Position numbers and translations under genes: made by a program. From positions 9,860,001 to 9,924,000 of the forward strand of contig CM097885.1 of the NCBI GenBank assembly GCA_044892525.1: 64,000 nt of DNA. Direction: 5' to 3'. This DNA is from Schmidtea polychroa (taxonomy: Eukaryota). The notes beneath the pieces were generated by a model. It was given only the letters and a program-made list of their open reading frames with translations, was not told the origin of the DNA and ran no database searches. This document shows, in pieces, positions 5,968 to 64,000 of the stretch (the stretch's first letter is position 1; each line of letters opens with the position of its first letter).

Positions 5968-6939
5968 AGTAGTGTGTTTATATCCCTAACCAACACAACC
6001 CCCCAACAAAACATACCTCCATTACGCCTAAACCATTAGAAAAACAACCTAAAACTTATACTTTTATAGTATTTTAACCCTATATTTTTGAAAACAACCA
6101 CCCTTAATACCCCTAACTGTTTTAATCAAACTCTAGAGTTGATCTTTATCAGATTATTGATTTTAAATTATATAAAACTTAAAAAATTGAAAAAGAATAA
6201 AAAATTTTATGAAATAGTAAAACTGCTCTGAGAGGACAGTGGTATTTTTTTTCCCACTGTCCTCTCAACAGTTTTTTTTGATCCGGATCATTTTTTTTTT
6301 ATTCAACCTCTTTCGTTTATCGAATCTCTTCCAATATACAAGCTGGCCAGACTCATACATCAGAATCAATTCGATAATAGCAGCACACCTTATTATTCGC
6401 TTCTCGCTCGAACACGATTTCATTGGCGTTTTAAGTGTGCTGCTCGAAAGTACAAATGAATTCGAAAGTGAATCCGAAAGAGGTCCGAAAACAACCAAGA
6501 AATAAATGTGCACATTATAGAATCGATCCGGGGGTGTTCGAAAGACTGGTGGCGATAATTACCGGTTCGCCACCACACCCGTTTCAATATTTTTTTTTCA
6601 TATTTATGTTTAAAAAATAATTAATTAATAAAATAAATAAAATATACAAGATTTATTTCCTAAGATACCCACACTATATATTTTTTTAATATTTATTTTC
6701 AAAAATTATTTTCTAGGGTTATATCTTTGTTTGCTTCAATTTCTAATTCAATTTTATAATATAATTTGGCATTACAAATATCTATTGGGTTTGATGTTTG
6801 AAGAGATTGAAAAACTATATCACCCCTACGATTTAAGTTTGCAATAGATCCTGAAGTTGGCGAGATTTTTAAAATATCATTTTTTTAATTTCATGAGTAA
6901 ATTCTTTATTATAATCAAGATTTAATTTATATATATTTA

Positions 6940-6978
<39 letters not shown>

Positions 6979-7855
6979 TTGTAAAAATGACAAAAATTTG
7001 AAACCTGATAGCGCAGTGGGCTAGACTGGCACAGTGGTTCAAATAGATAGCGGTTCAAATCACATCTGAGGTTAGTTTTTTTTCAACATAAAATAATATT
7101 AAAAATTTGAAAATAATATTGAAAATAGTGTGGGTATCTTATATTTATATTTTATTTTATTTATTTTTATTTTATTTTATATATTTTATTAATTAATTAA
7201 TTTTTTAAACATAAATATGAAAAAAAAAATATTGAAACGGGTGTGGTGGCGAACCGGTAATTATCGCCACCAGTCTTTCGAACACCCCCGGATCGATTCT
7301 ATAATGTGCACATTTATTTCTCAGTTGTTTTCGGACCTCTTTCGGATTCACTTTCGAATTCATTTGTACTTTCGAGCAGCACGCTTAAAACGCCGATGAA
7401 ATCATGTTCGAGCGAGAAGCGAATAATAAGGTGTGCTGCTATTATCGAATTGATTCTGATGTATGAGTCTGGCCAGCTTGTATATTGGAAGAGATTTGAT
7501 AAACGAAAGAGGTTGAATAAAAAAATGATCCGGATCAAAAAAACTGTTGAGAGGACAGTGAAAAAAAAAAAAAAAATTACCACTGTCCTCTCAGAGCAGT
7601 TTTACTATTTTCATAAAATATTTTATTCTTTTTCAATTTTTTAAGTTTTATATAATTTAAAATCAATAATCTGATAAAGATCAACTCTAGAGTTTGATTA
7701 AAACAGTTAGGGGTATTAAGGGTGGTTGTTTTCAAAAATATAGGGTTAAAATACTATAAAAGTATAAGTTTTAGGTTGTTTTTCTAATGGTTTAGGCGTA
7801 ATGGAGGTATGTTTTGTTGGGGGGTTGTGTTGGTTAGGGATATAAACACACTACT
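5968..7855. mobile_element. Non-autonomous mini-Polinton with ~730 bp TIRs and 6-bp TSD
   Basis: Starts AGTAGTGTG, ends CACACTACT, flanked by ACTTTC at 5962-5967 and 7856-7861; contains MCP gene fragment (6703-6929, near-identical to ~62165-62392) and tRNA-like cassette (7002-7083, like 63203-63287). Confidence 0.92.
7002..7083 (+). ncRNA. tRNA-like Pol III cassette copy in the mini-element
   Basis: A box TAGCGCAGTGG, two B-box-like GGTTCAAAT, AACCT/AGGTT closing stem, followed by a T run. Confidence 0.5.
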
Positions 7856-10171: not shown

Positions 10172-25760
<15,589 letters not shown>

Positions 25761-29002: not shown

Positions 29003-29601
29003 CAAATGATAGTGGACAAATGGTAGCGGATATAATGGTAGCGGACATAATAGTAAGGGATATAATGGTAGTGGACAAATGGTAGTGGACATAATAGTAA
29101 GGGATATAATGGTAGCGGACATAATAGTAAGGGATATAATGGTAGCGGATATATTGGTAGTGGGCAAATCGTAGTGGACATAATGGTAACGGATATAATG
29201 GTAACGGACATAATGGTAACGGATATAATGGTAACGGATATATTGGTAGTGGACAAATGGTAGTGGACATAATAGTAAGGGATATAATAGTAGCGAACAA
29301 ATGGTATGCGGCCATAATGGTAGCGGACAAATGGTAGTGGAAATAATGGTATGCAAACATAATGGTAGTGGAAATAATGGTATGCAAACATAATGGTAGT
29401 GGACATAATGGTACGCAAACATAATGGTAGTGGACATAATGGTATGCAAACATAATGGTAATGGACATAATGGTACGCAAACATAATGGTAGTGGACATA
29501 ATGGTATGCAAACATAATGGTAATGGACATAATGGTACGCAAACATAATGGTAGCGGACAAATGGTAGTGGAAATAATGGTATGCAAACATAATGATAGT
29601 G
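29003..29601. repeat. 15-bp minisatellite (ATAATGGTAGTGGAC variants), resumed at 44320-44450
   Basis: Direct reading; array is split by the 14.7 kb insertion; possibly the repetitive end of the adjacent MULE remnant. Confidence 0.9.
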
Positions 29602-32600
29602 AGTAGGTAGTTAGTAGCCCGCTGCAACAATTACCCCCCCCCCCGGGGGGGGGGGTTAAATTGTTGCACGATTTTTTTTGTTGCACGATTTTATTACGCA
29701 ATTGTTCCACACTATAGTCTCGATGGTCCTGGGATTTTCAATACAAAAATTTTTTTTTCTATACAAAAACGATGGTCCTGGGATTTTCAATACAAAAAAT
29801 TTTTTTTTTCAATACAAAAATCCGACTACCACTAAAAAAGCATGGAATTTTCAGACTATAGTGAGGTGGGTCTCGATGGTCCTGGGATTTTCAATACAAA
29901 TAAAATTTTTTCTATACAAAAATCCAACTACCAATAAAAAAGCATGGAATTTTCAGACTATAGTGAGGGGGTCTCGATGGTCCTGGGATTTTCAATACAA
30001 AAAATTTTTTTCTATACAAAAATCCGACTACCACTAAAAAAGCCAAGGATTTTTCAGACTATAGTGAGGTGGGTCTCCTTGGTCCTGGAATTTTCAATAC
30101 AAATAAAATTTTTTCAATAGAAAATTCGACTATCAATAAAAAAGCATGGATTTTTCTAGTTCAATTAAGGTGGGTCTCCTTGGTCCTGAGAAAAAGGTGG
30201 TCTACACTAAAAAACGTGGTCCTGAGAATTTCAATACAAAAAGGCAGTATACACTAAAAAAGAGTGGCAATTTAAGGTCTCAGGATATTTTCAATACAAA
30301 AATCCGATTATCAATAAAAAGCATGGATTTTTCTAGGCCAATTAATGCGGTCTCCTTGGTCCTGAGAAAAAGGTGGTCTACACTAAAAAACGTGGTAAAT
30401 TTTTTCAATTAAAGTAAATAATGGTCCAAATTTTTCAATTAAAGTAAATTATGGGTCTAAAAAATTAAATTAAAGTAAATAATGGTCCAAATTTTTCAAT
30501 TAAAGTAAATAATGGTCCAAATTTTTCAATTACATTAAATTATGGTTCTAAAAAATTAAATTACAGTAAATTATGGTTCTTAAAAATTAAATTACAGTAA
30601 ATAATGGTCCAAATTTTTCAATTACAGTTAATTATGGTTCTAAAAAAATTAAATTAAAGTAAATTAAGGTTCAAATTTTTCAATTAAAGTAAATTATGGT
30701 CCAAATTTTTGAATTACAGTAAATAATGGTTCAAATTTTTGAATTACAGTAAATAATGGTTCTAAAAATTGAATTACAGTAAATTATGGTTCTAAAAATT
30801 AAATTACAGTAAATTATGGTTCTTAAAAATTAAATTACAGTAAATAATGGTCCAAATTTTTCAATTACAGTTAATTATGGTTCTAAAAAATTAAATTAAA
30901 GTAAATTAAGGTTCAAATTTTTCAATTAAAGTAAATAATGGTCCAAATTTTTGAATTAAAGTAAATTATGGTTCAAATTTTTAAATTAAAGTAATGAATG
31001 GGCTCAAATAACTAAATTAAGGTTCTAAAAAATTAAATTAAAGTTAATTAAGGTCCAAATTTTAAAATTAAGTAATTAATGGTCAAAAATTTTAAATTAA
31101 AGTTAAATAAGTAAATTAAAGTAATAATTTTTAAATAAGTAATGTAATAAGTAAATTAAAGTAAGATTTTAAAATTTATTAACAAAAAGTTGAAATAATA
31201 GAAGGTGTTTGAGAATTGAAATTTTTTAATGAAAATTTTTATGAAATAATTTTTTAAGTAATTTTTAATAGAAATTTTTATGGAATAATTTTTTAAGTTA
31301 ATTTTTAATGGAAATTTTTATGAAATATTTTTCAATGATAATTTTAGATGGAAATTTTTAAGATAATTTTTAATGAAAATTTCTATGAAATATTTTTCAA
31401 AGACAAATTTTAATAATAATTCAACAACAAACCAACAACTTAGTACCAACAACCAGTAACCTATGAACATGTATTAACAATCAGATACCTACAACTAGTT
31501 ACTAACAACCTGCTACCAAGTACTTACAATCAGTTACCTGCTACCAAATACTTTCAACATGATACCACGTACTAAATAACTCTCAAACAACCAGATACTT
31601 ACAACCAATTACCAGATACCAAGTACCTACAACTAGTTACTAACAACTAGTTACCTGATACTAAGTACCTACAACCATCTAACAAGTACTAACAACCAAA
31701 AACAAGCAACCAACTAGGTACCAAGTACTAACAACCGACAACAACCACCTACCAACTAGCTACCACCTACCCATTAACTAGTTACAACCAGCTAACTAGG
31801 TACTAGATACCAAGTACTAACAACCAGTTACCTGCTACTAAGTACCTACAACCACCTACCTATTAACTAGCTACAACCACCTACCAACTAGCTACCACCT
31901 ACCCATTAACTAGTTACAACCAGCTAACTAGGTACTAGATACCAAGTACTAACAACCAGTTACCTGCTACTAAGTACCAACAACCACCTACCAAGTACAT
32001 ACAACCAACATCAACCAGGTACTAAGCATTAATTACCAACTACTAAGTACCTACCAAGTACCTACAACCACCTACCCATTAACTAGTTACTAAGTACTAT
32101 CAACCAACTAACTACTAGATACCAAGTACTAACAACCAACAACAACCAGGTACTAATCATTAATTACCAATTACTAAGTACCTACAACCATCTACCAAGT
32201 ACATACAACCAAGTACTAAGCATTATTAACCAACTACTAAGTACCTACAACCGACTAGCTACCACCTACCAAGTACCACCAACAACGAGATACCTACAAC
32301 TAGATACTAACAACTAGTTACCAGATACCTACTACTCACAGCCGTCAACAACCAGGTACTAAGCATCATCAACCAAGTAATAACAACTAGATACCTAGTA
32401 CTTACAACCAGATGACCACATGAAATTATTGGTTAAATAAGTAAATTAATGTCTAATTTTAAAATTAAGTAATCAATGGTCTAAAATATTAAAGTTAAAG
32501 TCAATTTAAGATTAAAGTTTTCTGGGATTTTCAATGTTAATTTTAGATGCAAATCTTCGTCAATCAATGAATGACCACATGAAATTATTAGTTAAATATG

Positions 32601-32896
32601 AATATAATTAGTTGTTTAGTAAATTATGGTGTAAAATTAAGAAATAAAGAATAATTAGGTAAATTAAGGAAAATTAAGGTTCAAAATTTAAAATTAAGTA
32701 ACCAATGGTTCAAATTTTAAATTAAAGCTAAATAAGTAAATTAAAGTAAGAATTTTAAATTTATTATCAAAAGATTGAATAACCACCAACTTTTTTTGAG
32801 AAATGTAATTTTTAATGAAAATTTAAATGGAAATTTTTTTTAAGTTAATTTTAAATGTAAAATTTTTTAATTTAATTTTTAATGGAAATTTTAATG

Positions 32897-32966
<70 letters not shown>

Positions 32967-33401
32967 TCAACAGTTCCCAACAATCGGTTACTAAATATTT
33001 TTAACTAGATGCTAACAAATACTTTCAACATGATACCAAGTACTAACTCTCAAACAACCAGATACCTACAACTAGTTACTAACAACCAACTAAGTATTCT
33101 TTATTGTATTTTATGAAATGTTTTTAAATTAATTTTTTATCTGTCTTCAAAAATATGTTTAATTACAATCAATAGAAAACCTTTTCAAAATGTCTAAATT
33201 TAACAAACATGTTGACTTTCATCAAAAAACCACAACTCAATCACTTTAAAACACCACGTGAAATTCAAAATAATTTAAATTACAATGAAATACTAATGAA
33301 TTCTAATTTACAAAAACATCTTCTTTTAAATGATAACTTATTATTGCATCGTAAAATCACATTCAATAAATACTTATTGTTGATCAGTTTTATTATATAT
33401 A

Positions 33402-36400
33402 CTCTGAGTTTATCCGACAGGATGTTTTGACCCCCCTAAGGGTACAGGTCGTAAGGGTACTGGTCGTAAGGGTATTAGTCGTAAAGGTACTAGTCGTAAG
33501 GATATTGCTAACTCTCAACCCCCACCTACCCATTAACTAGCTACTAAGTACTAACAACCAGTTACCTGATACCAAGTACATACAACCAACATCAACCTGT
33601 TACTAAGCATTATCAACCTACAACTATATAACAACAATCAGTAAACAACACTCTACCAACTATTAAATACAAGATACCAACAACTAGATACCAACAATCA
33701 ACTAACCACACATAAAAATAATAGCAATTAAATACAAAATATTCTTCATCACATACACTATCTTCTTATCAAAATCAGATACCAACTACCAACTACCAAG
33801 TACTAACAACCAACTACCTACAACCAACAACTATGTACTAACAAATTGATCTTTAAAAGAAAAATACTCATCACTTGAAAAATTAGATGGAAAATTAATT
33901 GAACTCAAGACATCAATAACTTGGTAAAAATTGATTAAATAATTGCAAAAATTTAAATTTACTCAAAATAAATATCATAAAAATTTAATTAATAGACAAG
34001 AAAGAATTCTATTCATTAATCATCCAGTAAATAAAAAAATACTGATCATTCAAGTTGAATCAACAAAGATAATAAATTAATAAGATAAGATTTATTAGAT
34101 AATTGATTTAGATTGAATAAATTAATTGAAATAAAATTAATTTTAATTATTTTTTTTAAAAGTAATACATGTACTCAAATTGATTGACTGATTGCTCAAA
34201 ATATTCAAAAAAAAACAGTAGAAATTCATTAAAATTAACAAAGTCAGCAATCTACAATAAAAATAATTATCATTAAATTCCAAGAGAGACTAGATAACTA
34301 ATGATAACATCTAATAAACCAGTAAATTCATTTAAATGACAATAATTGGTATATTCAAGCGAATTCTCTAATAAAATCATCTAAAAAGAATCATTTTCCC
34401 CTAAATATATCAATATTTAAAGATTAGTATTTTATCGATAAATATCCTTAAAAGGTTATATATTTACCTCAGACTAATAAGATTGCTTAAAATCCCTTTA
34501 AATGACTATAATTCTAACTTTAATTCCTATTATCACGAATATTTCCCTATAAAACATGTAAAATAAATTGGTCATTAACCCTAAATAATTTATAAAATCT
34601 AGTGATAAAACTGGTTATAATTAAATTTTTATTCTAAAAATAAATCACTCTATTTGAAATTTAAAATAATTATTACTGTACAATATAATTGACTAGGTCC
34701 CATTGAAAGATTAAATTTATCCATTCAATAAAATATATTTCTTCAAATGATCATTTTTACTGATATTCAACCGATTTAATTACTAATTAAAATCAATCGA
34801 TATATTTCTTCTAATAAAGATCAATTTTATTTAGTTGTTGTCGATGTTTTAAGTCCATATTTCTAAACTTTTGTCATTCTCCGCCTAAATAAAGATAAAA
34901 ATAAATTAAAGTTGATATCAATCCCAATTATCTGTAAAAATTTCATTGTCAAAACCAAGTAAATCGATCATTAACCCTACTTAATAAAACATAAGTCTAA
35001 ATTAATATACAATGAATTAATCACAACCTAATAAAACGATATAATTTCAAATTATTATTGATTCATAACTGACTAATGTATTGACATTTCCCTTAAAACA
35101 TTGATATTTTACCAACATCATACTTAAAAAATCATATATTCCCATCTTAACCCATCCTTCATTAAATTTAACCGACTATATCTCCTTTACAATGATATAT
35201 TCCTACCTTATCCGATCTCTCATTAAATTTAACCAACTATATCCCCTCAAAAGATCATATTTTCCCACCTTATTCGATCCCTCATTAAATCTAACCGACA
35301 ATATCCCATCTTATCCGATCTCTCACCAAATATTTCTACCCTTTTAAACATCTAACCGAATATATCCTTCAATTCTATCCACTTGAATCCTCCTTTAATT
35401 CACTCAATCCTCTTAAAATCCTTAGAGAACTTCAAAAATATGACTTAATTGTTACAGACACCAAATATTCTTCCATTGAAATAATTTAGTAGCTATGTAG
35501 TAAGAGTTCACTAAAAGATCAAAAATCAATATTTTCTACAAATATTTACCATCAAATACTGGAGATGAAATATATTGTTTGATGATAATTCTTCATCGAT
35601 TCAACCAATCATTTTCAAGCAATAACAGCAAACTAAATTTCTGTATATCCTACAATAATTATCAAGTAAATTTTAAGTCCTTGATAAAGTTAACTGGTTT
35701 CTTAGCTTATGTTTTTTAAAGTGCATCAATGTGTAAATATTCTTAGAAAATTATTGAAAAATTATTTATTCAAATGCATTACAAAGTCATCAAAAATCAC
35801 TTAATTATTAACCTAATTGTCAATGAAATTAATTTTTATTTAAAAACTATTCAATAAAATACAACTAATTATCAAGAAATTAATTAAATTTATCAATTAA
35901 ATTTATCAGTAAACATGAAATTCTTAGAAAATTATTCAATATCCTCATAAAAATTTATCCACTTGATTATTGTAAAAACTCTAATTATTAACATTGAAAA
36001 TAAATTTTATTTAAAATTAAAAAACCAATCAATAAAAATACATTCAATTATCAAGAAATTAATTAAATTTACCTTAGAATTAGCATTAAATTACAGAAAT
36101 TCACAAAAATAATGGAAATTCACAAAAATGATAAAAATTCACAAAAATAATAGAAATTCATGAAAATGATAGATATCCACGAAAAATTACGGAAATTCAT
36201 GAAAATATTAGAAATTCACAAAAAATGATGGAAATTCATGAAAATGATAGAAATTTACTTGAATAAAACCATCAACTCTAAAAATTATCAATGCCTTAAA
36301 CAACAAATTTGTCTAAATAATCATTCAAATAAAAGCATTAAATACCTTTACGACTAATACACTTACGACATGTTGAATGTGAGTAGTACCCTTGTGAGCA

Positions 36401-36443
36401 ATACCCATAGGGGGACAGAATATTTTTTCGGATAAACTCAGAG
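33402..36443. mobile_element. Nested TIR unit in TA context, left-arm copy
   Basis: TA-CTCTGAGTTTATCCGA ... TCGGATAAACTCAGAG-TA with subterminal GTCGTAAGGGTACT repeats. Confidence 0.7.
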
Positions 36444-37927
36444 TATATATTAATTAACTCATTCAAATTTATCATTGAATCAGTAAAATTATCATAAATT
36501 TCGATAAAAATTCTAATGTGGTAAGCAATGAAAAGAGAAATATTCTTTAAACTTAGATAAAACTAACAATGAAGGTGGTAAGAATCATTAAAGTGAGAAA
36601 ATTATTCATTACTCGATGATAAATTCAAATGGATGAAAATAATTGGTAGAATAATTTATTAATGGGCATAGATAAGAAAAAAGGTTGATAAGAATGGAAA
36701 TATATTAATTGAATTTATTTAAAATTATTTCATAAAATTCATAAAAAAAAACTTTTAAAAGAAATATTTGTGGAGATGTTTTAGGTGAAAATTAATCAAA
36801 ATCGGCGGAATATAATTGATTAAATATCGAGGATGGGGGTTATAATTAATGGAAAATCAATGGGATACAAATGATTAAATAGTGGAAAATCCGGGAATAT
36901 AAGTGATTAATTAATGGAATATTGAGAATCGGAGGAATATCAATGAGAAGGATATATAATTTAAACTAGTTTATTACATAACAAGCCGCGACTAGTTTAT
37001 TACATAACAAGCTGTGAATGGTATTTTACCAACATTTTTAAAGTATGTAATTTAATTTTAATTTTATTTTTAAATTGTACATATTTTGAATATCAAGCTG
37101 TGAATGGTATTTTACCAACATTTTTAAAGTATGTAATTTAATTTTAATTTTATTTTTAAATTGTACATATTTTGAATATCATTCTATTGTTTAATTCCGA
37201 TAATAAGTATAAAAAGTCTATAATGATTAATAAATTAATATCTTGTTAACATTTACCAGAGAATTTAAAAAACTTTACTTAAAATTTAGTGAAGTATTTA
37301 ATTTTGATTGTACTTTATAAGACATATATTTGAGTATTAACTTATTTTGATTGAAGTATCACATTCAATATTATGATTTTTTTTTCTAAATTGAAATATT
37401 TTAGTGTAAAATAGTTAATTTGATAATAAATAGAATACAATATTAAAGGACTTTTTGAAAAAAAAGTTACTTTCTACTGCCTAATCAATAAGTTCAAAAA
37501 GTTTAGAACTGTTAATAAATCAATTTCTTATTCGCATTTACATATAAATTTTTTATTTTTAAATTAAAGTATTAAATTGATGATTTAATTTTAATTGTAT
37601 TTGAATGATACATTTAATTTACTTTGATTGAAAGGAGTAATATAATTCATATTATGATATTTGTTTTCGAAATATTTAGTGTAGAATAGTAAATTTAATA
37701 ATATATAGCTATTATTACAAGTACTTATACAAAAAAACACTTTTTATTTCTAATGTTTTATTCCATCAATAAGTTTAAAAGTATGTAACTGGTAATAGAT
37801 TAATTTCTTATTTACATTATTCGAGAATTTGAAAAACTTATAAAATTTATATTTTTAAAATTTAATTTTGATTGTATTTTCTAAGACTTATATTTGAATA
37901 TTTAACTTATTTTGAATGAAAAGGGTA

Positions 37928-38016
<89 letters not shown>

Positions 38017-38698
38017 CTTTTATGATAATTGTTTTTGAAATACATAATGCAAATTAAAACATTTTAGTAATAATTTGCTATTATTTTAGAATTTATTTTA
38101 GTCAAAAATTAAAAAAAAGATCTAATCAATAATTCTCAATAAATTATCATTCACGGCTTGTTATGTAATAAACTAGTTTAAATTATATATCCTTCTCATT
38201 GATATTCCTCCGATTCTCAATATTCCATTAATTAATCACTTATATTCCCGGATTTTCCACTATTTAATCATTTGTATCCCATTGATTTTCCATTAATTAT
38301 AACCCCCATCCTCGATATTTAATCAATTATATTCCGCCGATTTTGATTAATTTTCACCTAAAACATCTCCACAAATATTTCTTTTAAAAGTTTTTTTTTA
38401 TGAATTTTATGAAATAATTTTAAATAAATTCAATTAATATATTTCCATTCTTATCAACCTTTTTTCTTATCTATGCCCATTAATAAATTATTCTACCAAT
38501 TATTTTCATCCATTTGAATTTATCATCGAGTAATGAATAATTTTCTCACTTTAATGATTCTTACCACCTTCATTGTTAGTTTTATCTAAGTTTAAAGAAT
38601 ATTTCTCTTTTCATTGCTTACCACATTAGAATTTTTATCGAAATTTATGATAATTTTACTGATTCAATGATAAATTTGAATGAGTTAATTAATATATA

Positions 38699-41600
38699 CT
38701 CTGAGTTTATCCGAAAAAATATTCTGTCCCCCTATGGGTATTGCTCACAAGGGTACTACTCACATTCAACATGTCGTAAGTGTATTAGTCGTAAAGGTAT
38801 TTAATGCTTTTATTTGAATGATTATTTAGACAAATTTGTTGTTTAAGGCATTGATAATTTTTAGAGTTGATGGTTTTATTCAAGTAAATTTCTATCATTT
38901 TCATGAATTTCCATCATTTTTTGTGAATTTCTAATATTTTCATGAATTTCCGTAATTTTTCGTGGATATCTATCATTTTCATGAATTTCTATTATTTTTG
39001 TGAATTTTTATCATTTTTGTGAATTTCCATTATTTTTGTGAATTTCTGTAATTTAATGCTAATTCTAAGGTAAATTTAATTAATTTCTTGATAATTGAAT
39101 GTATTTTTATTGATTGGTTTTTTAATTTTAAATAAAATTTATTTTCAATGTTAATAATTAGAGTTTTTACAATAATCAAGTGGATAAATTTTTATGAGGA
39201 TATTGAATAATTTTCTAAGAATTTCATGTTGACTGATAAATTTAATTGATAAATTTAATTAATTTCTTGATAATTAGTTGTATTTTATTGAATAGTTTTT
39301 AAATAAAAATTAATTTCATTGACAATTAGGTTAATAATTAAGTGATTTTTGATGACTTTGTAATGCATTTGAATAAATAATTTTTCAATAATTTTCTAAG
39401 AATATTTACACATTGATGCACTTTAAAAAACATAAGCTAAGAAACCAGTTAACTTTATCAAGGACTTAAAATTTACTTGATAATTATTGTAGGATATACA
39501 GAAATTTAGTTTGCTGTTATTGCTTGAAAATGATTAGTTGAATCGATGAAGAATTATCATCAAACAATATATTTCATCTCCAGTATTTGATGGTAAATAT
39601 TTGTAGAAAATATTGATTTTTGATCTTTTAGTGAACTCTTACTACATAGCTACTAAATTATTTCAATGGAAGAATATTTGGTGTCTGTAACAATTAAGTC
39701 ATATTTTTGAAGTTCTCTAAGGATTTTAAGAGGATTGAGTGAATTAAAGGAGGATTCAAGTGGATAGAATTGAAGGATATATTCGGTTAGATGTTTAAAA
39801 GGGTAGAAATATTTGGTGAGAGATCGGATAAGATGGGATATTGTCGGTTAGATTTAATGAGGGATCGAATAAGGTGGGAAAATATGATCTTTTGAGGGGA
39901 TATAGTTGGTTAAATTTAATGAGAGATCGGATAAGGTAGGAATATATCATTGTAAAGGAGATATAGTCGGTTAAATTTAATGAAGGATGGGTTAAGATGG
40001 GAATATATGATTTTTTAAGTATGATGTTGGTAAAATATCAATGTTTTAAGGGAAATGTCAATACATTAGTCAGTTATGAATCAATAATAATTTGAAATTA
40101 TATCGTTTTATTAGGTTGTGATTAATTCATTGTATATTAATTTAGACTTATGTTTTATTAAGTAGGGTTAATGATCGATTTACTTGGTTTTGACAATGAA
40201 ATTTTTACAGATAATTGGGATTGATATCAACTTTAATTTATTTTTATCTTTATTTAGGCGGAGAATGACAAAAGTTTAGAAATATGGACTTAAAACATCG
40301 ACAACAACTAAATAAAATTGATCTTTATTAGAAGAAATATATCGATTGATTTTAATTAGTAATTAAATCGGTTGAATATCAGTAAAAATGATCATTTGAA
40401 GAAATATATTTTATTGAATGGATAAATTTAATCTTTCAATGGGACCTAGTCAATTATATTGTACAGTAATAATTATTTTAAATTTCAAATAGAGTGATTT
40501 ATTTTTAGAATAAAAATTTAATTATAACCAGTTTTATCATTAGATTTTATAAATTATTTAGGGTTAATGACCAATTTATTTTACATGTTTTATAGGGAAA
40601 TATTCGTGATAATAGGAATTAAAGTTAGAATTATAGTCATTTAAAGGGATTTTAAGCAATCTTATTAGTCTGAGGTAAATATATAACCTTTTAAGGATAT
40701 TTATCGATAAAATACTAATCTTTAAAGATATAGTTATTTCAGGGATATTTGATGCTTTTTAGATGATTTTAATGAATTATTTGTAATAATATGAATTAAG
40801 GGTAGAAATATAGTCATTTAAGGGATTTTAAGGAATCTTGTTAGTTTGAGGTGAATATATGATATTTAACAAGTACTTATCGATAAGATACTAATCTTTA
40901 AATATTGATATATTTAGGGGAAAATGATTCTTTTTAGATGATTTTATTAGAGAATTCGCTTGAATATACCAATTATTGTCATTTAAATGAATTTACTGGT
41001 TTATTAGATGTTATCATTAGTTATCTAGTCTCTCTTGGAATTTAATGATAATTATTTTTATTGTAGATTGCTGACTTTGTTAATTTTAATGAATTTCTAC
41101 TGTTTTTTTTGAATATTTTGAGCAATCAGTCAATCAATTTGAGTACATGTATTACTTTTAAAAAAAATAATTAAAATTAATTTTATTTCAATTAATTTAT
41201 TCAATCTAAATCAATTATCTAATAAATCTTATCTTATTAATTTATTATCTTAGTTGATTCAACTTGAATGATCAGTATTTTTTTATTTACTGGATGATTA
41301 ATGAATAGAATTCTTTCTTGTCTATTAATTAAATTTTTATGATATTTATTTTGAGTAAATTTAAATTTTTGCAATTATTTAATCAATTTTTACCAAGTTA
41401 TTGATGTCTTGAGTTCAATTAATTTTCCATCTAATTTTTCAAGTGATGAGTATTTTTCTTTTAAAGATCAATTTGTTAGTACATAGTTGTTGGTTGTAGG
41501 TAGTTGGTTGTTAGTACTTGGTAGTTGGTAGTTGGTATCTGATTTTGATAAGAAGATAGTGTATGTGATGAAGAATATTTTGTATTTAATTGCTATTATT

Positions 41601-41915
41601 TTTATGTGTGGTTAGTTGATTGTTGGTATCTAGTTGTTGGTATCTTGTATTTAATAGTTGGTAGAGTGTTGTTTACTGATTGTTGTTATATAGTTGTAGG
41701 TTGATAATGCTTAGTAACAGGTTGATGTTGGTTGTATGTACTTGGTATCAGGTAACTGGTTGTTAGTACTTAGTAGCTAGTTAATGGGTAGGTGGGGGTT
41801 GAGAGTTAGCAATATCCTTACGACTAGTACCTTTACGACTAATACCCTTACGACCAGTACCCTTACGACCTGTATCCTTAGGGGGGTCAAGACATCCTGT
41901 CGGATAAACTCAGAG
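38699..41915. mobile_element. Nested TIR unit, mirror copy in right arm
   Basis: Reverse complement of 33402-36443 with about 150 extra bp near 40726-40880. Confidence 0.7.
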
Positions 41916-42350
41916 TATATATAATAAAACTGATCAACAATAAGTATTTATTGAATGTGATTTTACGATGCAATAATAAGTTATCATTTAAAAGAAGATG
42001 TTTTTGTAAATTAGAATTCATTAGTATTTCATTGTAATTTAAATTATTTTGAATTTCACGTGGTGTTTTAAAGTGATTGAGTTGTGGTTTTTTGATGAAA
42101 GTCAACATGTTTGTTAAATTTAGACATTTTGAAAAGGTTTTCTATTGATTGTAATTAAACATATTTTTGAAGACAGATAAAAAATTAATTTAAAAACATT
42201 TCATAAAATACAATAAAGAATACTTAGTTGGTTGTTAGTAACTAGTTGTAGGTATCTGGTTGTTTGAGAGTTAGTACTTGGTATCATGTTGAAAGTATTT
42301 GTTAGCATCTAGTTAAAAATATTTAGTAACCGATTGTTGGGAACTGTTGA

Positions 42351-42438
<88 letters not shown>

Positions 42439-44779
42439 CATTAAAATTTCCATTAAAAATTAACTTAAAAAATTATTTCATTAAAATTAACTTAAAAAAT
42501 TTTACATTTAAAATTAACTTAAAAAAAATTTCCATTTAAATTTTCATTAAAAATTACATTTCTCAAAAAAAGTTGGTGGTTATTCAATCTTTTGATAATA
42601 AATTTAAAAATCTTACTTTAATTTACTTATTTAGCTTTAATTTAAAATTTGAACCATTGGTTACTTAATTTTAAATTTTGAACCTTAATTTTCCTTAATT
42701 TACCTAATTATTCTTTATTTCTTAATTTTACACCATAATTTACTAAACAACTAATTATATTCATATTTAACTAATAATTTCATGTGGTCATTCATTGATT
42801 GACGAAGATTTGCATCTAAAATTAACATTGAAAATCCCAGAAAACTTTCATCTTAAATTGACTTTAACTTTAATATTTTAGACCATTGATTACTTAATTT
42901 TAAAATTAGACATTAATTTACTTATTTAACCAATAATTTCATGTTGTCATCTGGTTGTAAGTACTAGGTATCTAGTTGTTATTACTTGGTTGATGATGCT
43001 TAGTACCTGGTTGTTGACGGCTGTGAGTAGTAGGTATCTGGTAACTAGTTGTTAGTATCTAGTTGTAGGTATCTCGTTGTTGGTGGTACTTGGTAGGTGG
43101 TAGCTAGTCGGTTGTAGGTACTTAGTAGTTGGTTAATAATGCTTAGTACTTGGTTGTATGTACTTGGTAGATGGTTGTAGGTACTTAGTAATTGGTAATT
43201 AATGATTAGTACCTGGTTGTTGTTGGTTGTAACCATAATTAACTGTAATTGAAAAATTTGGACCATTATTTACTGTAATTTAATTTTTAAGAACCATAAT
43301 TTACTGTAATTTAATTTTTTAGAACCATAATTTAATGTAATTGAAAAATTTGGACCATTATTTACTTTAATTGAAAAATTTGGACCATTATTTACTTTAA
43401 TTTAATTTTTTAGACCCATAATTTACTTTAATTGAAAAATTTGGACCATTATTTACTTTAATTTAATTTTTAGAACCATAATTTACTTTAATTTTTAGAA
43501 CCATTATTTACTTTAATTGAAAAAATTTACCACGTTTTTTAGTGTAGACCACCTTTTTCTCAGGACCAAGGAGACCCGCATTAATTGGCCTAGAAAAATC
43601 CATGCTTTTTATTGATAATCGGATTTTTGTATTGAAAATATCCTGAGACCTTAAATTGCCACTCTTTTTTAGTGTATACTGCCTTTTTGTATTGAAATTC
43701 TCAGGACCACGTTTTTTAGTGTAGACCACCTTTTTCTCAGGACCAAGGAGACCCACCTTAATTGAACTAGAAAAATCCATGCTTTTTTATTGATAGTCGA
43801 ATTTTCTATTGAAAAAATTTTATTTGTATTGAAAATTCCAGGACCAAGGAGACCCACCTCACTATAGTCTGAAAAATCCTTGGCTTTTTTAGTGGTAGTC
43901 GGATTTTTGTATAGAAAAAAATTTTTTGTATTGAAAATCCCAGGACCATCGAGACCCCCTCACTATAGTCTGAAAATTCCATGCTTTTTTATTGGTAGTT
44001 GGATTTTTGTATAGAAAAAATTTTATTTGTATTGAAAATCCCAGGACCATCGAGACCCACCTCACTATAGTCTGAAAATTCCATGCTTTTTTAGTGGTAG
44101 TCGGATTTTTGTATTGAAAAAAAAAATTTTTTGTATTGAAAATCCCAGGACCATCGTTTTTGTATAGAAAAAAAAATTTTTGTATTGAAAATCCCAGGAC
44201 CATCGAGACTATAGTGTGGAACAATTGCGTAATAAAATCGTGCAACAAAAAAAATCGTGCAACAATTTAACCCCCCCCGGGGGGGGGTAATTGTTGCAGC
44301 GGGCTACTAACTACCTACTGTAGTGGAAATAATGGTACGCAAACATAATGGTATGCAGACATAATGGTAATGGACATAATGGTATGCGGAAATAATGCTA
44401 GAGGACAAAATCGTACAATCAAAATGGAACTAGGACTAAATGGTACAATGTATAAAATAGTATTAATTTAAGTCTATTTAAATAAACCTATTTTATAAAT
44501 GTAGTTAGCTAATTGTTGCCCTAACAAATATCGCATTAATTTTGAAGGAATAGATTAATGATTAGAAAAGTAAGTTGCCTTTATTTAGCATGCATGTCTG
44601 GGTCTTTTCGTCTTTCGTTTAATAATAATGAAAAACAATAGAAAAATCTAGACTAGTCAAACAAAAATATACAAATTATAATTAATAAATAATTTATAAA
44701 ATTTAATGTCAAATATTTAAGACTATATGCCTACTATAGGCCTTACAATGTTTCGTTTATGTTTATACGTTTTTGCAAT

Positions 44780-45565: not shown

Positions 45566-45718
45566 TTATTATTATTATTATTGTATTTATTAAAAAGTTT
45601 GACAATGAATCAATAAATATATCGATGTTTTTTTATATCTTTACTGATTCATAATCAGGTTTTTAATAATACAATGTCAATTGAAAAGAAATCAGTAGTG
45701 AAATTTGAAAAAAGTTCT

Positions 45719-45887
<169 letters not shown>

Positions 45888-47580
45888 AATTTAATATTAT
45901 GAATTCGTTTTTGATTTCTATTTGACTGCGGATACAATAAAAAAATGACAATAAAATTAATAAATTTGAATATGAACATAATACAAAATAAACATGAATA
46001 TAATATTGTACTTGCCGTTTCCCATTACAATTTAAAACTTTTCAAAAACATTCGATCTATTGATACCCTGCTAAAAGTTAAAGAAGAAATGAATGTAAAA
46101 TAAGTAGATCAAATACATATATTAAAAGAGTCCATATATTATAAAATGAAAATTTTATAAAAAGGATATTATTTGTAATGTGTTAAAATAAAGGCACTTT
46201 TATCAAATAATTAATTTTTTATTGCCGGAACCCGAGAAATAACTTTTACCTTTCTTTGAATATGCAAACCCTCCTGTAGTTGGGGTTTTAACTTTATTAT
46301 ATATGTAAACGGATTGTAAAATTTTTTTTCAAAGTTCTATATTAAAGTTCCTTTATTATTGAAAATGAAAAACAAAATTGTGAATTATGATATTTAGAAG
46401 ATGTGCTGCAAATATTTGACGTATTACTTACAAAAAATGATTAAAATTTTATTCTTTTTATTATATGCTTACTAACTCAAAAATTTATAATATATTCAAG
46501 ATATTTATACGTGGCTGTCTAATGGTTTATGTTTATATTAATAAGTAATTCTTAGAATTTAGCAATTGTCTATAGATACGCTATATACCGATACTAAATG
46601 AAGAAAATGTTCTACAAGTGTGGCGTTTAAAAATATATTTTAAATATTATAAGAACTTTTTTCAATTTTCACCTCTCATTTCTTTACAATTGACATTGTA
46701 TTTTTTAAAAAGCTTGACTATAAATCAGTAAATATATCGATGTTTTTTTATATTTACAAACTTTCGGCTCAGGTTTTTTCAAGTGATTTGATTCAAAATC
46801 ACTTGATAATGGCAGTGCCGAAAATTCGTGAATATCCAAAAAACATCGATATATTTACTGATTCATAGTCAAGTTTTCAATAAATACAACATTTTAAATA
46901 ATTTAAAAATAAAAACATGTGCTGCCACCTAATTTAGTTTGTATAAAAGGACAAGTTTACACACTTACAAATTAAAAATTTTATAGTTATGCTATTTAAC
47001 AGGCTTTAAATAGAAGTATAAAAACAAACAGTTTAGGTTAATTTTCAAGCATAACCTGTACAAGAAAATGCACTGTGATATAAATGTAAATATTAACATG
47101 ATTCATAATACATTCGTTGAATAAAATTTGTTTATAATTGAAATAACTTTCATTAATAATATTTGTAAAATGTTATATAAATAAAATACAGTTAAATTAA
47201 AAGAAATTATAATATGTGAGTAGTAGGTAATAAATTCATTGACTTTATTGGGAAAGACTCATTAATTTAATCGAGCGTGAGTCCAGACTACAATATGATG
47301 CATCCTACTCATTATGAGTCAAATGACTATAGATCGTACTCAGACCGATACCCCAACCGGCAATTGATTATCATCGAATGGCCATTGATTTGCAAATTTA
47401 ATAATATAAATATTAACATACCTATAATAAATGTTTGCGTGTCATAGCCAGATGTAACAATGAATTAGCTAGGTGACATTAAATTGGCAATTACACTATA
47501 GAAAGAGAAAAAATCGCTGTTGTAAGAAAAATAAATAATTACATACAAACACGGTTCACAAAATTTCTATAATTAAAAAA

Positions 47581-48308: not shown

Positions 48309-49629
48309 TATGACCATGATTAAATATTCATACGACAGACCATTAGTTGGGTCACAATTTTAGTGGTTAATGGTGTTCATTGGGTCATGGGTCGAAATTG
48401 GACATGTTCACAAGACTCTAAGTTTGAAAGATGAACACCCTTAAACACACAACTAAAAGTGATATAGAAAATATTTTTAGTGATTCGGAATTAGGAAAAA
48501 ATAAATTTTTTTTATTTTTGACTAGAAACTAGATTTAAAAGTAATTTTTACCAAAACCTTGTGAACACACTGGTTCAGTTGATTATAGTTCATCAATGGA
48601 AAAAATATAATAAATTTAAGGCATTCAGATGAGAAAAATACAAATCATACTACAAAATGTTGGCTTAGTCAAAGGCACAAAGCGACTTTTCAAAAGCTTT
48701 TCAGCCAAATTTTGATATTTTTCCGTCAAAATATTTTTTTTAAAGTTAATGACAATGTATAATTTTTAAAAAATTTTGTAAGTGACCTTCCTTACTTCTC
48801 TGTGTGATCACTCATTAGTAAGAGAGCCAAAAGATTTCGCGGCAACATTTTTTTATAATTAATTTAAACATGTTTTGAAAAATATTTTAATATTTCTAAG
48901 TGATTACGCGCCACAACATATAAAAGTTCACTTCAATCATTTTATTTTTAAAAAGTCAATTTAACAATAACAATTTTCCAAAGATAGATCAACTGGTCCC
49001 ACTTTGTCAATTTTTGTCCGATTTAAAAATAACTTTCACAATTTAGATAAAATATTTTACGAAATCTTGAAAATAATTTTCAATTTACTGCAAATTGACT
49101 TTTAAAATATTATTAAAATACTTTTAATTATTTAAAAGATTCGATTGCTCATTATTTGAATAAAGACTTACTGTTAAACTATATTATTATTACAAGCTGT
49201 TACCTGTTAAAAATGACGAAGAAATTTTTTAGTTTCGATATATTAAAATCCGGGCTGAAAATAAGTAGTGAGGAATCTATGCACCCCAGCACCCCCACCC
49301 TCAAAAAAAACAGCGCTATTGACCCATATTTTCCACATTTATATGCTTTTTTACCCCATATTCTTCACTTTTTTTAACTTTTAAACTTTGTCCCCTATTG
49401 CCATTAACCCTTAATTTCTTCCCTTAAAAGTAAAAAAGTTCGGAATAGATGTATTTATAGATTAGTAATTCCGAGAAAAGGTAACGGGGTGCATAGATTC
49501 CTCACTACTTGGTCTTAAGGATTTAAGGATTTAAAGGATTTAAGGATTTAACGTTATAAGGATTTAAAAATTAATAAAAATTAATATCAAAACCAAAACA
49601 TCGTATCCAACCAAAAAATTCTTTTAAAA

Positions 49630-52600: not shown

Positions 52601-54012
52601 TTCCATTTGCTCCAGTAAGAAGAAAGATCTCGACTGAAGAACTTTCAGACTGGCAGATGGCTCAGGATAGATCGCCCTGTATAAAACTTTTATGCGATCA
52701 GACCGATAAAACTGATTACCTTTGTCATTATAGACTCCTTCAGTTTTATCTCTCCCATGGAATGGTTTTAAAAAAAGTACATTCCATTATTAAATTTCGA
52801 CAAGCCCCTTTTATGAAAAAATTCATAGAGGGAAATATTTTGAAAAGAAATGCAGCAAAGAGAGCTGGAAATGCATTTCTTGATATGATTTACAAACTCC
52901 TGAACAATGCGGTCTTTGGAAAGACCATGGAGAATATAGACAAGTACACACGTGTAGAGCTTTTGACCAATACATCCAAAGACCTTAATAGGTACAACCG
53001 GATAATTGGAAAGCCCACATTTAAAAATGCCGAGATATTCTCTAGTAACCTTATAGCCATAGAGATTAAAAACTCTGTAAAAACTTATAATAAACCAATC
53101 TTTATAGGGTTTTCAATTTTAGAACTTTCAAAGCTTCAAATGTATGAAGCCTACTATGATGTTCTAGTACCACATTTTGGAGATCGAATATCCATGCATG
53201 CAATGGACACTGATAGTATGTTTTTAAAAGGATATAGCAAAGATTTAAAAAAAGAAATACGTGAAGATCCAACCTTAAATAAATTAATAAACAATTCTGG
53301 AGAGTTGTTTACTTTTAAAGATGAAAAACCAAATACTCCAATAACTGGAGGAGTGTTTATTAGACCTAAACAATATTCTCTTGAAATGAAAGACAAACCA
53401 ATTATGAAAGAGCATACAATAAAATTTATAATAGAAGGATCTGTTGAAGTAGATCGAACATTTGAATATCCTTCATTCCCTGAAAACCCGAAAAGCTATA
53501 AAGAAAATAAAAGTAAAGGAATTCAAAAATCAGTGTCAAAAACCTTCACACATCAAGAGTATAAAGATTCATTAAATATAAATTATAAAAATAAAATTGC
53601 TAAAACCCATCATCTTAAATCAGAGAAACATAATATATATCTTGAAGAGTGTAACAAGATTGCTATAACAAATTATGATGATAAAAGATTTATACTTTCT
53701 GACTTGAAGACAACATTACCTATTGGAAATGATTTAATCCCTATAATAAAAAATCTTGATAAAATAAATGAAATTTATAACCTAGAGATTACAGACCTTC
53801 AACTTGCTAAAGTAGAAATCCAATATCCTGAAATATTAATTCCTAAACCTTTATATAATCAAGTTCAAAATATAAAACCTATAGAACTTAAATATTTTAA
53901 TACTGATCCTGAATATATCCAAGGACTAACACCAGAAGACTTTAAATCACATAAATTAATGTTAAAAAGCATTACTGCAGAAATAATTATAAATCAATTA
54001 CGACTGGTCTAA
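49630..54012 (+). CDS. Protein-primed family B DNA polymerase with N-terminal zinc fingers and embedded endonuclease-VII-like domain
   Basis: Exo DFE, HNLFGYD, KGIYPYDY; pol YIDATALY, KLLNNAVFGK, MDTDS; CxxC...DHDH...YRGAAHKNCN. Confidence 0.96.
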   Translation: MEAIFNCEICEKNFKNKTALTSHKKSKDHLIKANTLDDTNSKICTKCKDRYLFSGYKKHFKNCIGVPKNREIFECSACGKKMRIKSFYLRHIEDCGLEAKDSDSNSMTEKAEKLEFNWDDFNHTDVIAEVKRGPRSIMQYIRENKKKIISSMDDAIKKFGRSRFNVIKVKFTGNAKYWRGDDSIAMPLDVKIETSYKYLFSTKAGNKLVNDIAKELEEKQEQVEQELGESNLRFHSFQNIEIEYWRGAPPNPKSFIHTPFTSNHVINVQNKDNKCFQWSILAHLHPQATNPQRVQKYEEYESELIYPKDFSHPMKIEDVPAFEKLNNLKINIYQFIPTKITKTRKNKNYKHIIPIYISNMEISDEKREVDLLILEEGKPDEDFDGEEYGEEVQSVHPKREAEEGISLEPEAESTASGGTMLDKKLHYILIKNFQSFMKGNTLIRGGICCKRCLYHSSSKLAAIKHERLCCKNQPALIKMPHKKNANMRFKNYSNLLEALGVVYCDFEAINVKLRRTKTNTVKLTKQLPSAYKMFFKSNYPELVKSREYSFRGTSDKETLDHFVETLNNLEHELYIILKSNFPMNFSEEQEEEYKNATHCWMCKQEFEDEESTSELKVPDHDHFKIENNYRGAAHKNCNLNCKKPTHIPFIFHNLFGYDIHLFIKHLAANAKNSFKVIGLTKEKYKSIQYGCFKFLDSLNFLGMSLDGIAKTMNPEDFKYTKEHVLLKNNIPLEEYNTCLAKGIYPYDYIDSFEKYNELLPPQEDFFSVLTQSGISDQEYSRALKMWNLFNCRNLGEYTDMYLSLDVYILADCFETFSKAFELKPYNYITAPSLAWDILLYSIWTDEDIAERNKTIELLVDLDMFNVYKHNIRGGISSVQGNREIIANNFTTLYPKFFKDTDALYVEITNPEDREEILEGLSNPSEIMYIDATALYAGVMTQYLPIGKFTWEEPTEELIQEILKTPKNSQYGYVIECDLEYPNEIKSRTRFFPFAPVRRKISTEELSDWQMAQDRSPCIKLLCDQTDKTDYLCHYRLLQFYLSHGMVLKKVHSIIKFRQAPFMKKFIEGNILKRNAAKRAGNAFLDMIYKLLNNAVFGKTMENIDKYTRVELLTNTSKDLNRYNRIIGKPTFKNAEIFSSNLIAIEIKNSVKTYNKPIFIGFSILELSKLQMYEAYYDVLVPHFGDRISMHAMDTDSMFLKGYSKDLKKEIREDPTLNKLINNSGELFTFKDEKPNTPITGGVFIRPKQYSLEMKDKPIMKEHTIKFIIEGSVEVDRTFEYPSFPENPKSYKENKSKGIQKSVSKTFTHQEYKDSLNINYKNKIAKTHHLKSEKHNIYLEECNKIAITNYDDKRFILSDLKTTLPIGNDLIPIIKNLDKINEIYNLEITDLQLAKVEIQYPEILIPKPLYNQVQNIKPIELKYFNTDPEYIQGLTPEDFKSHKLMLKSITAEIIINQLRLV

Positions 54013-54036: not shown

Positions 54037-54591
54037 ATGATGGAAACTAAAAATCAAGAAAATAACATTTTTGAAATTATAAAAAATATTACTAATTTAA
54101 AGGATAACAGATGTAAAGGAATACAGAGAGTGGTTGCAAAGAATCTTTCTCATCAAGATTATAGAGATACATTAAACCCAAATCATAAAGATAAAATTGA
54201 TGAAATACATCAACTTAAAAGTGAAAACCATGATATTCACTTGATAGAATCTCAAAAAGTATCATTATCAAATTATGATGATAAGAGATTCATACTAAGT
54301 GATTTAAAGACAACTCTACCTATTGGAAATAATTTAATCCCTATAATAAAAAATCTAGAAAAGTTGAATAAGTTATATGATACAAAGATTACTGATCTTG
54401 ATATTTATAATGTTGAAATTATTTATCCCGAGAGAGAAATCGAGAAACCTTTATATTCTCAAGTTTTTAATCCTATATGTTTAGAACTTAAATATTTTAA
54501 TACTGATCCTGAATATATAAAAGGTCTAAGTGATAAAGAATTTAAAGATCATAAATTAATGATTCATAGGTTGGCTTTCAACCATAACTGA
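54037..54591 (+). CDS. Stand-alone duplicate of the pPolB C-terminal ~160 aa
   Basis: Shares KGIQ, NYDDKRFILSDLKTTLPIGN and ELKYFNTDPEYI with the preceding ORF. Confidence 0.85.
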   Translation: MMETKNQENNIFEIIKNITNLKDNRCKGIQRVVAKNLSHQDYRDTLNPNHKDKIDEIHQLKSENHDIHLIESQKVSLSNYDDKRFILSDLKTTLPIGNNLIPIIKNLEKLNKLYDTKITDLDIYNVEIIYPEREIEKPLYSQVFNPICLELKYFNTDPEYIKGLSDKEFKDHKLMIHRLAFNHN

Positions 54592-62956: not shown

Positions 62957-63253
62957 ATGGATGAGTTAAAAGAAAGAATGAGAAATGAATTGAATGAAGT
63001 TAAACATAAGAGAATGAAAAGAAGAGAAGAAGAACCATTAGAATACATCAAAGAGTTGATGGTAGATAATGAAAAGTATCGACATTTTTATATGAAGGCT
63101 GTAGATGTTGCTGATATAAGATTGAAGAAAATGAAACAATTACAGGAAAGAGTTAAAGAACTTGAATCGATTATTTATAGTCTAAAAAATGACAAAAATT
63201 CAAACCTTGATGGCGCAGTGGGAATAGACTGGCACAGTGGTTCAAATGGATAG
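62957..63253 (+). CDS. Small coiled-coil protein
   Basis: AAAAATGG start, charged heptad pattern; 3' end runs into tRNA-like cassette 3. Confidence 0.6.
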   Translation: MDELKERMRNELNEVKHKRMKRREEEPLEYIKELMVDNEKYRHFYMKAVDVADIRLKKMKQLQERVKELESIIYSLKNDKNSNLDGAVGIDWHSGSNG

Positions 63254-63835: not shown

Positions 63836-64000
63836 CTATTTTCATAAAATTTTTTATTTTTAAAACTTTCAAAACCTTAAGGTGATCAGGCGACCTAGAT
63901 CATTATGAATTAGGTAATCTGATATTCTTATAACATTAAATCCTTAAGACCAAGTAGTGAGGAATCTATGCACCCCGTTACCTTTTCTCGGAATTACTAA

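Follow-up and report, generated by a model that had tools for sequence, protein, structure and literature searches.

A 14.7-kb gene-less palindrome with Polinton-like ends in Schmidtea polychroa

We analysed a stretch of 64,000 nucleotides from Schmidtea polychroa (assembly GCA_044892525.1, contig CM097885.1, positions 9,860,001 to 9,924,000 of the forward strand; hereafter the window) and found that positions 29602 to 44319 form a single palindrome of 14,718 bp that is devoid of genes. We read this element, with a probability of roughly 0.6, as a gene-less, high-copy passenger of the Polinton/Maverick type, one that relies on a helper both for the integrase that inserted it and for the protein-primed polymerase that copies it through fold-back. 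The insertion step taken alone is considerably firmer, and a Polinton integrase supplied in trans probably placed the palindrome where it now stands. The feature itself is real, but the evidence comes from one copy and the replication route is one that we infer. The window also holds a gene-bearing Polinton and a second palindrome of 1.9 kb, to which the element is compared.

The two ends of the palindrome are exact inverted copies of each other, with AGTAGGTAG starting at 29602 and CTACT closing at 44319. The terminal 18-mer has exactly two exact occurrences in the window, one at each end, together with one match at three mismatches, where shuffles predict none. The end motif reads AGTAGG, that is, five of the six bases of (AGT)2. 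Anchored alignments placed the left arm at 29602 to 36991 (7,390 bp, forward strand, beginning with AGTAGGTAG), a unique spacer at 36992 to 38150 (1,159 bp, about 16% GC) and the right arm at 38151 to 44319 (6,169 bp, reverse strand, ending in CTACT), such that the arms account for 92% of the element. A first-pass annotation of this DNA had described arms of about 7.4 and 6.2 kb, a spacer of about 1.1 kb and AGTAG...CTACT termini, all of which these measurements bear out.

The same annotation had called the arms near-identical, and substitutions indeed amount to 0.19% overall. In the outer arms all 1,033 of 1,033 aligned bases agree, whereas 11 of 4,859 are substituted in the inner arms; the gradient that these two figures might suggest is not significant (P about 0.10). 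Eight length differences separate the arms in the anchored alignment. By far the largest is the segment at 30640 to 32131 of the left arm (1,492 bp, forward strand), which is absent from the right arm, where the join is without microhomology; a deletion of about 1.5 kb had been reported here. The right arm had also been credited with about 150 extra bp, an underestimate of a segment that measures 176 bp; further extras amount to 55, 27, 18 and 1 bp on the right and to 5 and 1 bp on the left. The 176-bp segment (40727 to 40902, reverse strand) is the second, 87%-identical unit of a local duplication. With the exception of the 1,492-bp deletion, the length differences all come from repeat units gained or lost or from runs of unequal length.

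Tandem arrays, with units of 49, 102, 30, 13/39 and 21 to 63 bp, make up the outer half of each arm, and the inner half of the left arm is strand-skewed and AT-rich. The spacer opens with direct duplications of 26 and 86 bp, followed by degenerate repeats of about 285 bp and (AT)43. Immediately inside the ends, a hairpin folds around a palindrome of a C-run and a G-run (29623 to 29668, with its mirror near 44253 to 44298). The first 99 bases on the left have a predicted folding energy of -23.6 kcal/mol (z -4.6; 0 of 200 shuffles equally stable), and a strong hairpin is predicted at either end, 20 to 67 bases from the terminus (z -4.6 and -4.8; 0 of 200 shuffles). The structure is symmetric at the two ends despite runs that are five bases shorter on the right, and no such hairpin was found in the first 100 bases of the neighbouring Polinton or of the 1.9-kb palindrome. 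Deeper within the left arm lies an old, inverted pair of motif copies, 73% identical, at 33395 to 33489 (reverse strand) and 36343 to 36450 (forward strand), with its mirror image on the right. The pair includes CTTACGAC repeats, all of them short, and an outward-facing GGATAAAC word, and could represent relic promoters or the ends of a nested element.

The element is inserted in a host minisatellite with units of 14 to 16 bp, which occupies 29005 to 29601 on the left and resumes at 44320 to 44415 on the right, both parts running in the same direction on the forward strand. The flanking hexamers, ATAGTG (29596 to 29601) and GTAGTG (44320 to 44325), differ at one position. Because a duplication inside such an array could be illusory, the register of the minisatellite was checked. 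The unit that spans the insertion point is 21 bases long, as against 14 to 16 for single units elsewhere (pieces of 29 and 44 bases also occur, which are multiples left unsplit by the pattern), and thus contains six extra bases. This shift of register substantiates the ATAGTG/GTAGTG duplication of the first-pass annotation. Where the array is undisturbed, adjacent 6-mers with at most one mismatch arise at 17 of 585 cut points, and the ATAGTG variant is present at the start of the array too. We conclude that the target-site duplication at this one site is 6 bp in length, with five of six bases identical. A duplication of 5 bp with a stray base was also considered; it involves an equal number of anomalies, and agrees neither with the literature nor with the 1.9-kb palindrome.

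No credible open reading frame (ORF) had been recognised in the element, and none emerged here. The longest frame beginning with ATG encodes 104 amino acids and lies within the 102-bp array, compared with a 95th percentile of 106 amino acids in 200 block shuffles. Six-frame translation of the left arm and spacer, in 12 read-through frames, gave two weak Pfam matches, both below the curated cut-offs and driven by repeats. The five longest frames of the element had no match in PHROGs. An Rfam scan returned four matches at E 0.37 to 0.88, all far under the gathering scores, and no piece resembling signal recognition particle (SRP) RNA. The 11 proteins of the neighbouring Polinton gave no tblastn match inside the palindrome. 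Taken together, the ORF, Pfam, PHROGs and tblastn searches detected no gene for a capsid, ATPase, protease, protein-primed polymerase B or integrase in the element, which is thus no autonomous Polinton/Maverick. Pattern scans of viral and metagenome contigs gave 0 matches to the terminal 21-mer and 0 to a 21-mer from the internal motif, and the inner arm had no match among phage records.

The left arm and spacer are contained, wholly or partly, in 20 of the 24 sequencing runs listed (seven studies), and 12 runs hold at least half of the words; the run richest in the element's words is perhaps the source sample. No RNA run containing the element is listed among them. Contigs of four runs from four studies (X1, X2, X8 and X9) were mapped onto 29400 to 32890, which takes in the flank, the end and the outer 3.3 kb of the element. 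They numbered 212,683, 40,478, 618 and 965, respectively, and the flank bin had summed depths of 528, 188, 0 and 0. Bins wholly within the element exceeded the flank bin by 1,120- to 19,850-fold in X1 and by 805- to 8,900-fold in X2, in a summed depth that is inflated by overlapping short contigs and internal repeats and is not a copy number. The element clearly belongs to a very abundant, high-copy DNA family. Furthermore, the segment at 30640 to 32131 is covered to the same family-level depth as the rest of the outer arm, and contigs of 127 to 158 bases match it without a difference. The left arm therefore has the family form, and it is the right arm that has lost the segment. The 15 joints displayed, out of 1,422, did not include the join created by this loss, which does not argue for its absence.

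The same contigs gave a moderate signal that the two arms are alike within this copy. Variant positions were taken from 40 of 208 rows, and 17 positions in paired regions were compared with both arms. The arms agree at 15 of the 17. At 30249, 30268, 32565 and 32569, both share a letter that is absent from 75 to 100% of the depth in each of the four runs, a figure that rises to 97 to 100% at the last two positions. At the remaining two positions, 32513 and 32752, the arms differ and the right arm carries the common letter (87 to 100%), indicating later changes in the left arm. Over 32503 to 32641, one X8 contig departs from the window at 6 letters and 9 gap positions, at a depth equal to that of perfectly matching contigs; the arms differ there by one letter. 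Thus, variants that mark this copy or its subfamily occur in both arms, which points to copying from arm to arm, either at replication or by gene conversion.

The gene-bearing Polinton next to the palindrome starts with AGTAGT at 49264 on the forward strand and runs past the window edge at 64000. Its right end is projected at 64198, giving a predicted length of 14,935 bp. Among its products are a double jelly-roll capsid protein, an A32-like ATPase, a protein-primed polymerase B and an integrase with an rve domain together with a phospholipase A2-like domain; an intact polymerase and integrase of the Polinton class are present 5 kb from the palindrome. Its capsid has 41 homologous proteins, the best at 97%. 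A search of viral contigs for relatives of its integrase gave 19 candidates, 0 of which were confirmed.

The smaller palindrome (5968 to 7855; 1,888 bp) is also gene-less, has AGTAGT ends and is flanked by a perfect 6-bp duplication, ACTTTC. Both of its arms match only the non-coding region at the neighbour's right end (63170/63389 to 63861), at 90 to 91% by BLAST, and its spacer carries 275 bp of the 5' end of the capsid gene, 93% identical to the neighbour. Its outer 225 bases are unlike the neighbour's terminal repeat beyond the first seven bases. The arms are 2.2% apart from each other, as against 4.2% from the neighbouring Polinton. A copy-back product from one Polinton end would be expected to look like this; alternatively, a relative whose terminal repeats were longer may simply have undergone an internal deletion. 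To judge by its sequence, this small element shows that gene-less, Polinton-derived palindromes insert with 6-bp duplications here and need not be large.

Several further features of the neighbourhood were recorded. The 271-bp terminal repeat of the neighbouring Polinton includes an inverted copy of its own first 24 to 25 bases (49264 to 49509 and 63928 to 64000). Each end of that Polinton thus has a 246-bp unit that starts with AGTAGT and ends with ACTACT, the inner copy being without a flanking duplication. Directly after its polymerase gene, a frame of 184 amino acids (54037 to 54591) is open as a separate gene; at the DNA level it is a 73%-identical copy of the last 460 or so bases of the polymerase (53500 to 53961). 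A short frame of about 97 amino acids, just below the 100 required for listing, occupies 62960 to 63250 in the right-end region, most of which stretch is missing from the 1.9-kb palindrome. Between the large palindrome and the Polinton there is a small imperfect palindrome of about 190 bp (46696 to 46889), with related pieces near 12678 to 12788 and 45569 to 45734; it and its partial copies are probably a family of miniature inverted-repeat transposable elements (MITEs). A AGTAGTAGG word at 47219 was set aside as a chance occurrence, since the window contains neither an end nor a duplication to match it.

On our preferred reading, a Polinton integrase acting in trans would have produced the 6-bp duplication. 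The helper that supplied it is likely of a family other than the neighbouring Polinton, as the first-pass annotation had supposed, because the palindrome is unrelated to that Polinton in sequence. The family may have originated by copying from one end for several kb inward and then doubling back, and both ends would thereby descend from a single end. The 26- and 86-bp duplications at the boundary of arm and spacer would fit slippage of the polymerase at such a turning point. In later rounds, the displaced single strand could snap back on its arms to give a hairpin of about 7.5 kb with a loop of about 1 kb. Through this hairpin the following round would again start from a duplex end, and one arm could overwrite the other. 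Adenovirus repairs its ends through panhandles. For Polintons, a published proposal invokes a racket-like single-stranded intermediate in which short terminal repeats prime the protein-primed polymerase (PMC4196379). Since the last equalisation of the arms, the copy would have acquired the 11 substitutions, losses of repeat units and the one 1,492-bp deletion seen today, as is expected of an unstable long inverted repeat.

A number of observations weigh against a helper-dependent Polinton passenger copied by fold-back. Neither DNA nor protein comparison linked the palindrome to the neighbouring Polinton beyond chance, and no link to any gene-bearing Polinton was found, whether in the neighbour or in the pattern scans of viral and metagenome contigs. 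The ends read AGTAGG and not the full (AGT)2 of Mavericks. A single insertion site was observed, and its duplication has one mismatch despite a difference of only 0.19% between the arms. No terminal flanks appeared in the 24 loose ends displayed out of 3,064, which does not argue for their absence, and the terminal bins were nearly empty in X8 and X9, for which the C/G hairpin may be the explanation. The shared-letter signal is graded no higher than moderate because it draws on 40 of 208 variant rows, because internal repeats cause cross-mapping (82,346 of the 212,683 X1 contigs fit two places) and because related subfamilies were admitted at 88% likeness. Chromosomal gene conversion likewise yields arms that are alike. 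Additionally, an outer tandem-repeat domain with several sub-domains fits the description of Foldback-like elements (PMC3169594).

Gene conversion is central to the alternative that survives best, although we consider it unlikely: a Polinton integrase would act alone, by cut and paste, and the arms would be made and kept alike by chromosomal recombination and gene conversion with no involvement of a protein-primed polymerase. Galileo provides a precedent, having recruited internal DNA into its arms, with the longest arms in non-autonomous copies (PMC3573991). The eight arm indels likewise indicate that the palindrome was rearranged in place, and no extrachromosomal form is indicated by the data here. 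However, the arms of Galileo measure about 1.3 kb at 95% identity (PMC3573991), as opposed to more than 6 kb at 99.8% in the palindrome. Moreover, the family is very abundant, though we infer that a 15-kb palindrome should vanish quickly without active copying.

A role for packaging was raised by the first-pass annotation, which had matched the palindrome in size to the neighbouring Polinton. This match fails because 14.7 kb reflects the one-sided loss of 1,492 bp of family DNA: the undeleted palindrome would measure 16,210 bp, or 16,493 bp with all units in both arms, which is 8.5 to 10% longer than the 14,935 bp predicted for the neighbour. Hence, of the satellite reading proposed in that annotation, the gene-less state, the Polinton-like ends, the 6-bp duplication and membership of a high-copy family stand, and the size matching to the neighbour is unsupported. 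That a packaged satellite carries arms of stuffer DNA tuned to the capsid of its helper is rather improbable. The undeleted length of 16.2 to 16.5 kb is close to that of intact Mavericks in vertebrates, which average 16.9 +/- 1.7 kb (PMC8097293), and the arms are mostly expandable tandem arrays, yet the same size range could be reached without selection by doubling one Polinton end, and Maverick particles have so far been unobserved (PMC8097293). The clean insertion of the 1.9-kb palindrome with its perfect 6-bp duplication further implies that no particular length is needed. A bolder extension of the fold-back reading, which we regard as doubtful, would make giant gene-less palindromes the integrated form of snap-back polintovirus satellites, defective genomes copied as full-length hairpins by the protein-primed polymerase of the helper, their arms reset at each round, held to about 16 kb by the helper capsid, and having out-multiplied their helper within the germ line. 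Were this true, arm divergence would date each insertion, as pairs of long terminal repeats (LTRs) do for retroviruses.

It is less probable still that the palindrome belongs to a different cut-and-paste superfamily (Mutator or P-like) as an element of the Foldback type, with AGTAG ends by coincidence. Beyond the modular likeness already mentioned, this explanation draws on the fact that no Polinton homology of the palindrome was found. Against it, the register of the minisatellite gives a duplication of 6 bp, compared with 8 to 10 bp for Tm1/Mutator (PMC3169594) and 7 bp for Galileo (PMC3573991), and the 1.9-kb palindrome, which likewise has a duplication of 6 bp and whose ends read AGTAGT, is demonstrably Polinton-derived. 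Finally, an assembly artefact from a fold-back read or whole-genome amplification is extremely improbable: palindromic chimeras are known from amplified long-read libraries (PMC13265396) and nothing among the contigs mapped on 29400 to 32890 ran across the element from end to end, but a fold-back would mirror the left flank, whereas the minisatellite on the right continues in the same direction and in register with six extra bases, 11 substitutions and eight indels separate the arms, each of which has DNA that is absent from its partner, and the fold ends precisely at the AGTAG terminus.

The model of Polinton/Maverick replication through a racket-like single-stranded intermediate is so far a proposal drawn from sequence alone. 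A high-copy, gene-less family with paired arms of 6 to 7 kb makes that proposal testable from the genome alone: arms that are identical at insertion, and new variants that appear in both arms together, would, if true, imply copying by fold-back. As a passenger, the palindrome shows that ends suffice for spread. A second lesson is that very long inverted repeats, which readily undergo deletion and rearrangement, can be introduced into a genome by Polinton activity.

Among known systems, Mavericks have (AGT)2 or (AG)3 ends and duplications of 6 bp, and in vertebrates their terminal repeats measure 46 to 1,447 bp (PMC8097293), and for Polintons duplications of 5 to 8 bp and terminal repeats of 100 to 1,500 bp are given (PMC10748475). 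The palindrome shares with them its AGT-type ends, 6-bp duplication and inverted terminal repeats. Its arms, at 6.2 to 7.4 kb and 92% of the element, are four to five times the longest terminal repeat reported in PMC8097293, and its ends read AGTAGG. Its length falls inside the range of 12.7 to 24.6 kb, but polymerase, integrase, ATPase, protease and capsid genes are all lacking; the palindrome works like a Polinton passenger.

Polinton N families, of which Polinton-1N1_DR is one by naming convention, are non-autonomous, gene-less and short. A zebrafish family of that name exists (PMC9341505), and the polintons of butterflies have gene-bearing terminal repeats of about 2 kb (10.1101/2025.02.07.637071). 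The palindrome resembles non-autonomous Polinton derivatives in its likely dependence on a helper and butterfly polintons in having arms beyond the usual length. In contrast to the arms of butterfly polintons, its own are three to four times longer, are gene-less and nearly meet in the middle of the element. No description of 15-kb gene-less palindromic Polinton derivatives was found in a literature search that had one over-common query word and left the founding Polinton paper and Repbase outside its reach, and gene-less giant palindromes are not described in the extracts of PMC6431247, PMC3014272, 10.1101/2024.01.15.575659 and PMC12747079.

Elements of the Foldback type, such as Tm1 of the Mutator group (PMC3169594) and Galileo of the P group (PMC3573991), likewise have long modular arms with internal tandem arrays, gain and lose units between arms, and carry their longest arms in non-autonomous copies. 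Their arms extend to about 1.3 kb and are 93 to 95% alike, whereas those of the palindrome exceed 6 kb and are 99.8% alike; their duplications of 8 to 10 bp (Tm1) or 7 bp (Galileo) likewise differ from its 6 bp. In snap-back or copy-back defective viral genomes both ends come from one end and, as in adenovirus panhandles, a single strand can fold back as a long hairpin that has a duplex origin. The palindrome would resemble such genomes on both counts. It differs in its integration into a host genome, where it is inherited and amplified, the integrated form being the one known here.

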